From positions 228,824-292,823 of the forward strand of contig CAZTBI010000001.1 in assembly GCA_964612055.1 (NCBI GenBank): 64,000 bases of DNA. The letters are read 5' to 3'. Under the pieces are notes generated by a model, which was not told the DNA's origin, searched no databases, and saw nothing but the letters and a program-made list of their open reading frames with translations. Positions within the stretch are counted from its first letter, which is position 1. The number at the start of each line of letters is the position of its first letter. Below, piece by piece: positions 1,220-4,009 of the stretch. The translations under genes and the position numbers were made by a program. This DNA is from an uncultured Bdellovibrionales bacterium. Lineage in GTDB: Bacteria > Patescibacteriota > Minisyncoccia > Moranbacterales > UBA1568.

Positions 1220-2485
1220 TTATTTATACATATTCGGTAAATCACGATCAAACAATGTATACGGATCGTTATAAAACTTTACGAATGAATCATAGTTCTT
1301 CTGACCAGGAAGCGGCACTCTATATCCTCCCTCTCCCCCTCTTGGTTCATTCGTCCAAGTCATAAAATAGACAATATTTTTCGCTACCGAATCAGCCTTG
1401 AGCGGTTCCAGGAAATCTTTCATGAACCAGTCTTGTGATGTCGTATTACCAAAACCTTGTTTCACTCCGGACTCGGTGATAGCAGCGACTTTCCCATGTT
1501 CTTCGGCAAACTCCACCAAAAAACGAGCGTCAGCTAATATAGCCTGAGTATAGTTATCACTCACTCTCTTCCCTTTTTCTGTCTCGTCTGTATCATAGCG
1601 GTCTACACCGACCACATCGACATAGGCATCACCAGGATACCGATCAAACCCTCCGTTAGGATGATCTGTTACCTGTGAAGGCGCGAAGGCGAAAAGCATA
1701 TTATGGACTCCTTTCTCATTGCGGAGGTAGTCAACCATATACCGCCAGGCAGCAATATATTCTTCCGGCGCACTATGCTTCTGTCCCCACCAGTCCCATG
1801 AACCGGTCATTTCGTGCCAAGGTCGGAATATGAGTGGTATTTTAACTCCATTCTCCTCCGCACTATTAGCAAAATCAGCGATATCATCAAGAATCTTTTT
1901 GAAATTCTCATTACCACTCTTGCCCGGCATAAGGTTTACCATTGGGTCACCATTGAAATCGTGAGAATCACCGAGGGTTACAGGGTTCGGCATAGGCATA
2001 TGAACTGTTACCACAGCTCCTTTGCGATAAGCATCAAGAACATACGGCTTGAGCCTATCCATTCCTTCGCCAACGGTGTAGTTTGTATTGAGATTGATCC
2101 CGTACAGGCCCGGACCATCACCAACAGCTGTTTCTATATCAGAAACATTTTTTTGACCAGCTTTTGCATTCCACTGCTGGCCACTAAGCGAAGCGTGCTG
2201 CTGACCAAAAATAAGCCCCTTCCCTCGGAGGGCCCGGAGATTCTGAAACAGCGCTACAGTTTCTTTGGTGGCCTTTTTATCCGAAGGAAGGGCGGTATCT
2301 GAAGAAGTATCTACACTTACAGGCTCTTCTGACGCCCGATTGTTTGTCTGGGTCTGGCGTGGCTGAGTCAAAACCGGTACCCCATCATCTGTCCTCTGTT
2401 TCATGAAAAACGTGACCGCCAGAACCCCAAGTACTACAACAAAGAGCGCTATCAAAAGGTATTTTAGAGCAGTAGCTTTATTCAT
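1220..2485 (-). CDS. Glycoside hydrolase family 26 (beta-mannanase-like), membrane anchored
   Basis: 421-aa ORF with an N-terminal TM helix and a WHEMTGSWDWWG motif typical of GH26. Confidence 0.6.
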   Translation of the reverse strand: MNKATALKYLLIALFVVVLGVLAVTFFMKQRTDDGVPVLTQPRQTQTNNRASEEPVSVDTSSDTALPSDKKATKETVALFQNLRALRGKGLIFGQQHASLSGQQWNAKAGQKNVSDIETAVGDGPGLYGINLNTNYTVGEGMDRLKPYVLDAYRKGAVVTVHMPMPNPVTLGDSHDFNGDPMVNLMPGKSGNENFKKILDDIADFANSAEENGVKIPLIFRPWHEMTGSWDWWGQKHSAPEEYIAAWRYMVDYLRNEKGVHNMLFAFAPSQVTDHPNGGFDRYPGDAYVDVVGVDRYDTDETEKGKRVSDNYTQAILADARFLVEFAEEHGKVAAITESGVKQGFGNTTSQDWFMKDFLEPLKADSVAKNIVYFMTWTNEPRGGEGGYRVPLPGQKNYDSFVKFYNDPYTLFDRDLPNMYK

Positions 2486-2548
2486 AAATGAGGGAAAAAT
2501 ACTAATAAGCGCATTATAACACTCTTTGTCTTAATACTCCCGGGGAAC

Positions 2549-2574
2549 AAAAAAGGACCCATTTAATGGGTCCA
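2549..2574 (-). terminator. Rho-independent terminator downstream of tRNA-Gln
   Basis: GGACCCATT-TAA-ATGGGTCC hairpin followed by a T-run on the minus strand. Confidence 0.5.
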
Positions 2575-2590
2575 CTTATTCTTTTCAATG

Positions 2591-2662
2591 CTGGGGAGGA
2601 AGGGATCGAACCTTCGCATGGTGGGACCAGAACCCACTGCCTTACCGCTTGGCTACTCCCCA
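2591..2662 (-). tRNA. tRNA-Gln, anticodon CTG
   Basis: Manual fold gives acceptor TGGGGAG/CTCCCCA, D arm GCC..GGC, anticodon stem GTGGG/CCCAC with loop TTCTGGT, T arm GAAGG-TTCGATC-CCTTC and discriminator G. No CCA is encoded. Confidence 0.8.
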
Positions 2663-2666
2663 ATAA

Positions 2667-2918
2667 CTACAAACTATCTAGTATTTCTTTTAGTTCTCTT
2701 CTGCCACTTCTTGTTTTCAGGTACAATTCTCTTTTTCTGGCTTTGTCCAGACTATCAAAACTTTCAAAGTAAATCAATCGTAGAGGCCTTCGGTTCATTG
2801 TGGCCCTACATCTGCCATTATTATGCTCCTCTAGTCTCCGCCTGAGATTATCTGTTGAGCCAGTATAAGTTTTACCGTCGCCTAGACTAAGGAGAATGTA
2901 TACTGTGTTTTCTTTCAT
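2667..2918 (-). CDS. GIY-YIG nuclease superfamily protein (UPF0213-like), about 83 aa
   Basis: MKENTVYILLSLGDGKTYTGSTDNLRRRLEEHNNG...ELYLKTRSGRRELKEIL is a classic GIY-YIG core. The ORF-track start at 3071 adds 51 residues that are a read-through of tRNA-like sequence, so the start was set at the ATG at 2918. Confidence 0.65.
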   Translation of the reverse strand: MKENTVYILLSLGDGKTYTGSTDNLRRRLEEHNNGRCRATMNRRPLRLIYFESFDSLDKARKRELYLKTRSGRRELKEILDSL

Positions 2919-2924
2919 AAGACC

Positions 2925-3020
2925 AGAACCCACTGCCTTATCCGTCCTCGTTTCTCTCGGCCGAGACAAGCCGCTTGGTTTACCTCGGCTCGCTTTAGCG
3001 AGACGGGCTACTCCCCAAGA
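2925..3020 (-). repeat. Degenerate partial copy of the 5' half of tRNA-Gln, interrupted by a palindromic insertion of about 65 nt
   Basis: Three blocks match the intact tRNA in order: TGGGGAGTAGC, CCAAGCGG and TAAGGCAGTGGGTTCTGGTC. Hairpin-forming inserts lie between them (CCGTC...GACGG ends). The T arm and 3' acceptor are absent. Confidence 0.55.
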
Positions 3021-3094
3021 ATGTATATCAAAACGCCCTCCTATCCTAGCGAAAAAGAGGCTCTCGGTCAAGATGAAAGCCTCCTTGGAAACAC

Positions 3095-4009
3095 CTACAC
3101 TTTCAGATAGCGACGGATGGCAATGGTGCTGGAAATCACTCCCAAGAGTACGCCGAGGAGTAAAAGTCCGAAGAGAACAGGAAAGAAGAAATGAAGGTAC
3201 AGTCCCATGAAATTCCCCTGCGGAATCGCTCCTTCAGTCAGTGGTGAGATAAAATAAGCAGCGCCAAAAAGAGAAATGGCCGTCACCAAAGCTGCCGCCA
3301 CTCCGTAGAATATACCTTCGAACATAAATGGCATACGTACATAGATGTTGGACGCCCCTACCAAACGCATGATCTCGAATTCCTGACGGTGCGAATAAAT
3401 AGTGATTCGAATCGTGTTGAACGTAATGAGAACAGCAATAAAGATAAATGACAAGCCGAGAATCAAGCCCACTCTCTTCGCAGTACTATTGATGTGATCG
3501 AGGCGATCAAAAATCTTTTTATTCTTGGCGTAGTTGATACGGCTGATGTCACTCTGGAAGGTCGAATGCTCTATCTGATTGACGATCACATCGTAGTATT
3601 CTGGCTGCACCGCTTTCACAACGAGCGAAGCCAAAAGTGGGTTTTCGCCAATTTCTTCTACTGCCTGAGCAATGATCGGGTCATTACCACTTTCTGAGAG
3701 GAAATTCTTCAGCGCATTATCTCGTGAAACGTACTCGACCGACGCTACTTCTTTTTTGTATTTGGCCAGTTCATCACGAATCTCCAAGATACGCTCTTCT
3801 GAAACATCCGGGTTGAAAGAAACACTCACCGTTACCTTGTCACGCATCCCTTGGAGTACATAGTGTGTCGTCACACCGAGCAGAGTCGAGAGACTGACGA
3901 TGAAAAGCGAAAGTGTCAAAATACTGACCGTCGCAAAAGACAACCAACCATTACGATGGAAGTTGAGCCAGCCTTCTTTAAATGTTCGCCACAGTTTCAG
4001 TGCTTTCAT
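3095..4009 (-). CDS. ftsX: Cell division ABC transporter permease FtsX
   Basis: Four C-terminal TM helices plus a periplasmic domain, FtsX-like. A start at the ATG at 4009 (MKALKLWRTF) avoids a 50-nt overlap with ftsE. Confidence 0.75.
   Translation of the reverse strand: MKALKLWRTFKEGWLNFHRNGWLSFATVSILTLSLFIVSLSTLLGVTTHYVLQGMRDKVTVSVSFNPDVSEERILEIRDELAKYKKEVASVEYVSRDNALKNFLSESGNDPIIAQAVEEIGENPLLASLVVKAVQPEYYDVIVNQIEHSTFQSDISRINYAKNKKIFDRLDHINSTAKRVGLILGLSFIFIAVLITFNTIRITIYSHRQEFEIMRLVGASNIYVRMPFMFEGIFYGVAAALVTAISLFGAAYFISPLTEGAIPQGNFMGLYLHFFFPVLFGLLLLGVLLGVISSTIAIRRYLKV

Follow-up and report, generated by a model that had tools for sequence, protein, structure and literature searches.

A minimal GIY-YIG nuclease gene lodged in a split tRNA-Gln gene: a probable selfish, tRNA-resident cassette

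How does a nuclease gene come to lie between an intact transfer RNA (tRNA) gene and the 5' part of a second copy of that same gene? The question is raised by a 64,000-nucleotide stretch of contig CAZTBI010000001.1 (assembly GCA_964612055.1, positions 228,824 to 292,823; hereafter the window), on the minus strand of which an open reading frame (ORF) for a GIY-YIG nuclease of 83 amino acids (aa), the only GIY-YIG ORF in the window, is enclosed by two tRNA-Gln sequences. We give a probability of about 0.7 to the explanation that this is a selfish cassette, resident in tRNA genes and built around a minimal Slx1/UPF0213-type GIY-YIG nuclease, which uses the promoter of the tRNA gene and regenerates the tRNA that it splits. 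We base this on what we observed of the anatomy of the locus, its empty and filled alleles, the recurrence of the layout at multiple tRNA isotypes, the constraint on both the ORF and the leader in front of it, and the co-variation of palindromes with nuclease clades.

The order of elements that an initial annotation of the locus had proposed, including its spacing, was borne out. Along the minus strand, nucleotides (nt) 1-38 of tRNA-Gln, carrying two palindromes, are followed after 2 nt by the ORF (2667..2918; ATG at 2918, stop codon TAG at 2669..2667) and, after another 4 nt, by an intact tRNA-Gln(CUG) at 2662..2590, the one tRNA that both ARAGORN and Infernal called here (59.8 bits with the Rfam tRNA model; gathering score 29). 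Neither program folded the upstream fragment into a tRNA, and an Rfam scan of it brought up no family other than tRNA. The fragment starts with tRNA nt 1-12, which comprise the 5' acceptor strand and the start of the D arm (TGGGGAGTAGCC, 3006..3017), and continues with a first palindrome of 29 nt (CGTCTCGCTAAAGCGAGCCGAGGTAAACC, 2977..3005), the D-loop core AAGCGG corresponding to nt 13-18 (2971..2976), a second palindrome of 30 nt (CTTGTCTCGGCCGAGAGAAACGAGGACGGA, 2941..2970) and nt 19-38 (2921..2940), which cover the 3' strand of the D stem, the 5' strand of the anticodon stem, the entire anticodon loop and the first base of the 3' strand. Because AAGCGG is kept between the two inserts, all of nt 1-38 are present, twice interrupted. 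The D arm had been described as split by a single palindromic insert of about 65 nt; the insert is indeed palindromic, but it consists of two separate pieces, 3005..2977 and 2970..2941, on either side of the retained core. As for the repeats, nt 19-38 match the intact tRNA at 20/20 positions (direct repeat D1, with 2625..2644), for which we estimate a chance probability of about 4e-7 within 900 nt, and nt 1-12 belong to a 16-nt repeat with an identity of 15/16 (D3, with 2651..2666).

A sigma-70-like promoter, TTGACC-17 nt-TAGGAT (3043..3071, minus strand), was the sole promoter-like site within 2450..3150, and an intrinsic terminator with an 8-bp stem followed by TTTTTT (2573..2555), the sole terminator on the minus strand of the region, closes the unit just past the tRNA. 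With a single promoter and a single terminator, and with a 4-nt gap that is too short for a separate tRNA promoter, the remnant, the nuclease gene and the tRNA should form one transcript, so that, judging by this anatomy, the nuclease would necessarily be co-transcribed with the tRNA. We found the same arrangement in independent assemblies (L012, L224, L225, L101 and L102), and it is therefore not an assembly artefact.

To find empty sites, we fetched the contigs encoding the closest relatives of the FtsX protein, downstream of whose gene the tRNA lies. In five of these loci (L092, with an FtsX 94% identical to that of the window, L093 with 90%, L095, L098 and L099), one intact tRNA-Gln(CUG) lies downstream of FtsX and a GIY-YIG gene is absent, and none showed a plain tandem tRNA array. 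L093 moreover has GH26 following, as in the window, so the synteny of FtsX and GH26 is kept in the empty allele. As the window, L012, L224 and L225 are filled, the site shows the presence/absence polymorphism at a conserved position that is expected of a homing endonuclease. We aligned two filled (window and L012) and two empty (L092 and L093) alleles, and found the promoter and the tRNA conserved in all four, while filled and empty alleles differed by a single clean block of 355 nt, made up of the palindromes, the ORF and the second copy of tRNA nt 1-38. In both empty alleles the promoter, whose alignment columns are invariant, sits directly upstream of the single intact tRNA, and the intact tRNA of the window is 100% identical to those of L012 and L092. 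Given that the alleles share promoter and tRNA and differ by the 355-nt block, the remnant appears to occupy the original tRNA position, and TTGACC-17-TAGGAT would be the native tRNA-Gln promoter, which now drives remnant, nuclease gene and tRNA alike. The earlier suspicion that a GIY-YIG element had targeted or duplicated the tRNA gene thus gains support from empty relatives that lack exactly these 355 nt, and from the recurrence of the layout at many isotypes described below.

GIY-YIG and FtsX homologues that carried a name came from Moranbacteria/Moraniibacteriota (Patescibacteria, Candidate Phyla Radiation, CPR). Labels of metagenome-assembled genomes such as 'Bdellovibrionales' and 'Gammaproteobacteria', attached to several of the loci, look doubtful, because those loci share cassette types with named Patescibacteria.

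Could the 355 nt instead be the scar of an integrase-borne island, or the endonuclease gene of a group I intron in the anticodon loop? tRNA genes are classic integration sites, and the very same tRNA-Gln adjoins a serine recombinase island in L095. There, the tRNA-Gln call (3562-3636) is overlapped from the opposite strand by a large serine recombinase gene (Resolvase/Recombinase/Zn_ribbon_recom; L095:3550-5094), after which comes a helicase-like gene, so that this tRNA-Gln is also used by a conventional integrative element. Likewise, the anticodon loop of a bacterial tRNA gene can harbour a group I intron (PMC3984707), and residues 5-34 of the nuclease match the NCBIfam family 'group I intron endonuclease'. 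Yet this match is weak and far under the cut-off (21 versus 56 bits), the 355-nt insertion holds the 83-aa ORF only and no integrase, and the repeat is the 5' part of the tRNA (nt 1-38), not its 3' end. Furthermore, the ORF takes up 252 of the 258 nt that separate the repeats and so leaves no space for a ribozyme, Rfam finds no intron or any other family (E up to 10), and what follows the ORF is a complete tRNA, not a 3' exon. We therefore consider both versions extremely improbable.

As a separate observation on the surroundings of this tRNA, several relatives carry a conserved element of about 150-200 nt past the tRNA-Gln terminator (L092:3655-3757, which is cassette-free, L012:1890-2090, L016, L017 and L224/L225), and the window has none. 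At its start stands the T arm as reverse complement (GGAAGAGATCGAAC), and at its end a tRNA 3' end (GTTCGATTTCCCTTCCTCCCCAGC); its inner conserved motifs are GGGAAAA.A...TGTTTGCCCGTT.GGGGTGACC and GGAAGCCCTATAGAGCG, and an Rfam search with the element of the relatives gave no match.

The protein itself matches the Pfam family GIY-YIG (PF01541) over residues 5-73 of 83 (E 2.3e-15, 57.1 bits against a cut-off of 22.6). When we compared a profile of its family with PDB entries, the UPF0213 proteins BH0048 (1ZG2, 4.8e-15) and EF2693 (1YWL, 8.4e-14) came first, followed by SLX1 (6e-5) and, weakly, I-TevI (0.03). Residues Y7, Y18, G20, R28, H32 and E64 are invariant among 23 family members, and we take these to be the catalytic positions, going by what we know of I-TevI and UvrC. 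The product is thus a minimal stand-alone GIY-YIG domain of the Slx1/UPF0213 type, consisting of the catalytic domain only; the stand-alone UPF0213 (YhbQ-type)/Slx1-like proteins, 1ZG2 and 1YWL among them, are at once its best sequence match and of the same minimal single-domain architecture. A stand-alone Slx1-like class without auxiliary domains has been described, and its single-domain form was considered ancestral (PMC1564403). In our literature search, we found neither a biological role nor an association with tRNA genes described for the UPF0213/Slx1-like stand-alone bacterial proteins. A search of PHROGs with the protein gave no match; its phage relatives are distant (identity 41% or less), and the one phage locus that we inspected was not beside tRNAs.

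The public protein record (P0001) is 134 aa long, and its 51 surplus N-terminal residues translate the tRNA remnant and the palindromes (2919-3071, minus strand). This long N-terminus, which had already been called false, is indeed so: homologues mostly measure 79-92 aa, and the TTG annotated as start codon (3071) belongs to the -35 hexamer of the tRNA promoter. Exact-sequence look-ups with the 83-aa product, the 134-aa product and P0001 matched no contig.

Is the locus maintained, or is it decaying? Between the window and L012, nucleotide identity is 71.8% for FtsX, 71.6% for the promoter-proximal intergenic region and 77.8% for the GIY-YIG ORF, and it rises to 95% for the remnant with its palindromes and to 100% for the intact tRNA. 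The remnant differs at 5 positions, all of them confined to two hairpin loops. The ORF showed a ratio of non-synonymous to synonymous substitution rates (dN/dS) of 0.07-0.08 against both L012 and L101, with a dS of about 0.9-1.6, and the 95% identity of the remnant was thus held while synonymous sites came near saturation. These values indicate that the ORF and the palindrome-bearing leftover are both under purifying selection. The leader is accordingly functional and no decaying scar, because gene conversion by the intact tRNA might preserve the 38 tRNA-derived nt but could not preserve the 59 nt of palindrome. Hence the word 'degenerate', used of the half-copy in the initial annotation, does not fit: the bases that derive from the tRNA are intact, and over its full length the piece is better conserved than the ORF.

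The layout recurs widely among relatives. A same-strand tRNA abuts the end of the ORF at 36 of the 91 homologue loci that we fetched. These loci comprise all 11 that were fetched from three homologues (L001-L011), each with a same-strand tRNA (Gln-UUG, Leu-UAG or Leu-CAA) 6-16 nt past the ORF, and 80 further genome loci found with the family profile (L012-L091), where a same-strand tRNA abuts or overlaps the ORF end in 25. Among these 80, going by heuristic ORF starts, a same-strand tRNA ends within 17 nt of the ORF start in 7 and lies 55-305 nt upstream in 13 more, and tRNAs on the opposite strand are rare as neighbours of the ORF. Altogether, we found the combination of remnant, ORF and tRNA at Gln, Leu, Asp, Asn, Gly, Val, Ile, Ala and Ser genes. 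In the type seen in the window (type A), a 5' tRNA piece is followed by the ORF and an intact tRNA of the same isotype; an ungapped match to the adjacent tRNA (score at least 11) within 220 nt upstream of the ORF was present at 23 of 36 loci, compared to 1 of 36 control regions. The mirror type (type B) starts with the intact tRNA, has the ATG of the ORF within 0-17 nt of it and ends with a 3' tRNA piece, which was found in 6 out of 7 loci. Composite loci with both pieces also exist (L002, L008, L052, L058, L068 and L070); the 3' acceptor strand of their downstream piece is complementary to the 5' acceptor strand of the upstream piece, and they look like an older tRNA that 'ORF plus tRNA' has split in two. 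In L013, subtracting two palindromes from the dead 3' piece leaves exactly nt 8-73 of the window tRNA, and the functional tRNA-Gln(CUG) next to the ORF differs in sequence, meaning that a cassette can carry its own replacement tRNA. The T loop is the insertion site of the ORF in distant clades, and a clade without a tRNA neighbour makes up about half of the fetched relatives in a rough neighbour-joining tree of the 80-aa protein.

Two further features of these loci deserve mention. At L034, L050, L052, L054, L058, L068, L070, L074, L089 and others, the ORF reads through the acceptor strand and takes its stop codon (UAG or UAA) from tRNA positions 8-10. RNase P cleavage would strip the stop codon from such messenger RNAs (mRNAs), which is possibly a built-in limit on nuclease expression. 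Separately, the intact tRNA-Gln of L014 (1757-1828) has a C:U mismatch atop its anticodon stem (CTGGG/CCCAT), and the upstream remnant (about 1428-1500) keeps the pairing ATGGG, a hint that the functional tRNA may be chimeric, with its 5' part brought by the cassette and its 3' part resident.

What, then, are the palindromes? GC-rich palindromes are found on nearly every leftover tRNA piece. Type i (CCCGYCTCG...CGAGGCGGR) is 29-45 nt long, at times arranged in tandem arrays of 1-7 units, and in 382 kb of related loci it was matched 72 times, each time within a tRNA remnant next to a GIY-YIG ORF; the 64-kb window holds no further copy. Insertion points of type i are mostly GG^T, whether within the D loop, behind the acceptor stem or within the anticodon loop, and the second copy in the window sits at the usual D-loop site of its family (GG^TA). 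As removal of the inserts from L013 restores the tRNA sequence exactly, with no target-site duplication, they are clean insertions at GG^T. The palindromes do have terminal inverted repeats, namely 9-bp arms (CCCGCCTCG/CGAGGCGGG) in relatives and imperfect equivalents in the window copies, as the suggestion of a miniature inverted-repeat element would have it; the suggestion fails on the missing target-site duplication and the absence of dispersed copies from the sequences just given. The same element can be inserted in both orientations at the same site: L014 and L015 are 95% identical as reverse complements and 52% identical when compared directly, and L009 and L026 are 96% identical as reverse complements.

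In more distant nuclease clades, other palindromes replace the anticodon arm, with GGTCGCC-NNN-GGCGACA occurring at Gly, Val and Ile loci and GGTCCGAYGGACATCGGACA at Asp, Val and Ala loci. Types ii and iii of these palindromes cross isotypes and stand solely beside ORFs of the matching nuclease clades, save for one unrelated match far from the ORF in L025. The palindrome type therefore tracks the lineage of the nuclease and not the tRNA isotype, which argues that the palindrome is part of the cassette.

Both inserts of the window belong to the CCCGTCTCG subtype. The first copy resembles the single palindrome of L022 (CCCGTCTCGCCGAGGCGAGCCGAGGCGGA) and differs among the window, L012 and L101 in the hairpin loop only; L016 follows the same design, with two inserts flanking CCAAGCGG. 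Because they are similar palindromes, the two window inserts can also pair with each other, and the predicted fold is then a composite hairpin whose tip is formed by the D-loop core. Together, the two copies have a predicted folding energy of -27.9 kcal/mol (z = -2.0), and their antisense strand one of -31.8 kcal/mol (z = -3.7). The whole 102-nt fragment folds no better than shuffled sequences (z 0.19), compared to z-scores of -2 to -4 for the inserts alone. A metagenome scan for the window-type leader yielded three more loci, two of them identical to L012 and one to L016.

Some candidate explanations and copies were set aside. A split or permuted tRNA, or excision of the inserts at the RNA level, fits no known bacterial mechanism, and the inserts occur in both orientations beside a tRNA that is always intact. 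Palindrome arms in viral contigs proved to be chance hairpins, as 77 of the 80 examined lay in phage contigs of at least 50% G+C and 0 in a tRNA-like context.

Palindromes also showed variation of their own elsewhere. A 31-nt unit, CCCGTCTCGCCCGAGGCTTGCCGAGGTCGGA, forms tandem arrays in L001-L007 and L019 (the P0010 loci), with 1-7 copies between near-identical loci; these arrays are hypervariable, and two assemblies have runs of N there, where assemblies break. Beside the cassette of L021 (1850-2010), a second tRNA-Gln(UUG) copy of almost full length bears two palindromes in the D arm and encloses no ORF, so palindrome-bearing tRNA copies can exist without an internal nuclease gene. The tRNA-Ser remnant of L055 (1320-1490) contains other small palindromes (TCCGGCATTCGCCGGA and TGGGGCGGATGCCCCA) within its anticodon. 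GC-rich hairpins thus appear to be a general property of the leftover piece and not one sequence family.

These data also bear on another explanation, an accident in which a tandem tRNA-Gln duplication decayed and left an unrelated small ORF and a random hairpin in between. Duplicated tRNA genes and tRNA fragments are common in bacterial genomes, which speaks in its favor. However, the same ordered architecture exists at dozens of loci and about ten isotypes, the remnant is conserved better than coding sequence, the ORF is strongly constrained and the palindrome families are exclusive to these sites, and we consider an accident very improbable.

Returning to the selfish cassette, we envisage that the nuclease would break tRNA-gene DNA, and that repair or recombination with a cassette-bearing copy would spread or keep the unit in a homing-like manner, as for the phage nuclease SegB discussed below. 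The displaced original 5' part would become the 5' leader of the nuclease mRNA, with the palindromes in its D loop, and an RNase P cut at the 5' end of the tRNA would part this mRNA from the tRNA. The regenerated or cargo tRNA would keep the host viable, and the borrowed tRNA promoter would make the nuclease gene hard to silence. The palindromes may be a functional partner, serving as a recognition structure for the nuclease, as a breaker of the 38-nt direct repeat that protects the gene against deletion, or as a stabiliser of the mRNA leader.

Several points weigh against this picture. We found no separate DNA-binding domain, and indeed no sequence beyond the catalytic domain; an 83-aa putative nuclease of this kind would be unlike the characterised homing endonucleases and would have to find its site with the catalytic domain alone. 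It would also have to spare the adjacent intact tRNA, which carries the presumed target sequence. The cassette has diverged between the window and L012 about as much as the host genes have, and the presence/absence pattern could reflect old vertical inheritance with repeated precise losses via the 12-nt repeat and not a recent gain. Either orientation of the palindromes works and both strands fold; the better-folding strand is the antisense one for the window type and, slightly, the sense one for the CCCGTCTCG type, which would suit a role in RNA as well as one in DNA. Finally, the window-type double palindrome is known from three sequence versions only, too few for an analysis of covariation.

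Some of the same observations would also suit a module that serves the host, in which the nuclease acts on tRNA or tRNA-linked nucleic acid (in quality control, in defence or in a toxin-antitoxin-like manner), the leader is a regulatory or decoy RNA and the link to the tRNA is one of co-regulation. The strong purifying selection on protein and leader and the obligatory co-transcription with the tRNA are compatible with this explanation. What tells against it is that the gene has a patchy distribution in close relatives, where the tRNA and its neighbours stay the same, that tRNA remnants and cargo tRNAs are typical of invasion, and that palindromes in either orientation are hard to fit with a sequence-specific RNA partner. 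Moreover, to our knowledge, the GIY-YIG enzymes so far characterised are DNases, and a PADLOC search gave no convincing family, with only weak N-terminal motif matches at E above 0.002. A hint of RNA metabolism does come from a prokaryotic Slx1-like GIY-YIG domain that is fused to a TrmH methyltransferase (tRNA Gm18, D-loop; PMC1564403). On balance, we regard a host-serving role as unlikely.

A bolder version of the selfish cassette would make the GIY-YIG nuclease and the palindromes a two-part mobile system, in which a structure-specific nuclease recognises or writes the hairpin specific to its clade at GG^T sites in tRNA-derived DNA, so driving the insertion of the cassette and its spread from one tRNA gene to another. 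We put this forward tentatively and consider it rather doubtful. It resembles the systems of repetitive extragenic palindromes (REP) and REP-associated tyrosine transposases (RAYT) and those of IS200/IS605 in that short palindromes accompany a small nuclease gene, without target-site duplication, at a short site (GG^T here) and in either orientation. In contrast, those systems employ an HUH tyrosine transposase where we find a GIY-YIG domain, the palindromes here are not dispersed in the genome, and their movement by the nuclease is conjecture.

Which known systems come closest to a selfish tRNA-gene cassette? An element of the Allomyces mitochondrial atp6 gene is an endonuclease cassette that replaced part of the gene, left the displaced fragment behind and is accompanied by double-hairpin elements. 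The likeness lies in a nuclease gene that comes with a functional copy of the target segment, a surviving resident fragment and GC-rich hairpins nearby; that element is organellar, sits in a protein-coding gene and involves other nuclease architectures, whereas ours occupies a tRNA gene, measures less than 0.4 kb and has its hairpins inside the leftover fragment. The other relevant system is SegB, a phage GIY-YIG protein of about 220 aa that includes a DNA-binding part. It is a homing endonuclease of the free-standing kind and belongs to the tRNA gene cluster of T4/T6 (PMC13096335, which cites Brok-Volchanskaya 2008, PMC2330249). The phage T6 enzyme makes its cut inside tRNA genes, at RAWTSGAAC. 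Across phages SegB is statistically co-localised with tRNA genes, it drives a recombination-dependent duplication of tRNA and segB, and a 28-aa C-terminal truncation alters its activity in vivo (PMC13096335). We read RAWTSGAAC as the complement of the T loop, which would match the T-loop site of the ORF in several of our relatives. In both phage and the present case, a GIY-YIG gene lies among or beside same-strand tRNA genes. However, SegB is a phage protein, and the present one is an 83-aa cellular protein of Patescibacteria from the Slx1/UPF0213 branch, whose I-TevI-type similarity reaches only E 0.03 and which has no PHROG match; a split tRNA gene, a regenerated copy and palindromes on the leftover, as seen here, have not been described for SegB.

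The association of GIY-YIG enzymes and tRNA genes as such is already known from phage SegB (2026; PMC13096335), as are endonuclease cassettes that leave gene fragments behind. What is new is the setting in cellular genomes of the CPR, the minimal enzyme of the Slx1/UPF0213 type, its position within a tRNA gene that is both split and regenerated, and a leftover whose palindromes are specific to the nuclease clade. In our full-text literature search, we met no account of a GIY-YIG gene nested in a bacterial tRNA gene, though its coverage was incomplete and a prior description is possible.

For the annotation of these genomes, the locus is a warning that gene callers are misled by palindrome-bearing tRNA fragments, by over-extended starts (134 versus 83 aa) and by stop codons at tRNA positions 8-10. 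For the biology of the cassette, it suggests a compact design in which a tRNA gene is split, regenerated and relieved of its promoter by less than 0.4 kb of DNA, and it extends the link between GIY-YIG nucleases and tRNAs from phages to the cellular genomes of the CPR. As about half of the closest relatives sit within or next to tRNA genes, tRNA-gene DNA together with the linked palindromes suggests itself as a candidate target of these enzymes. If nuclease and palindromes did form a two-part mobile system, it would be a functional analogue of REP/RAYT or IS200/IS605 with GIY-YIG chemistry, and would provide a first biological role for the bacterial UPF0213/Slx1-like proteins.

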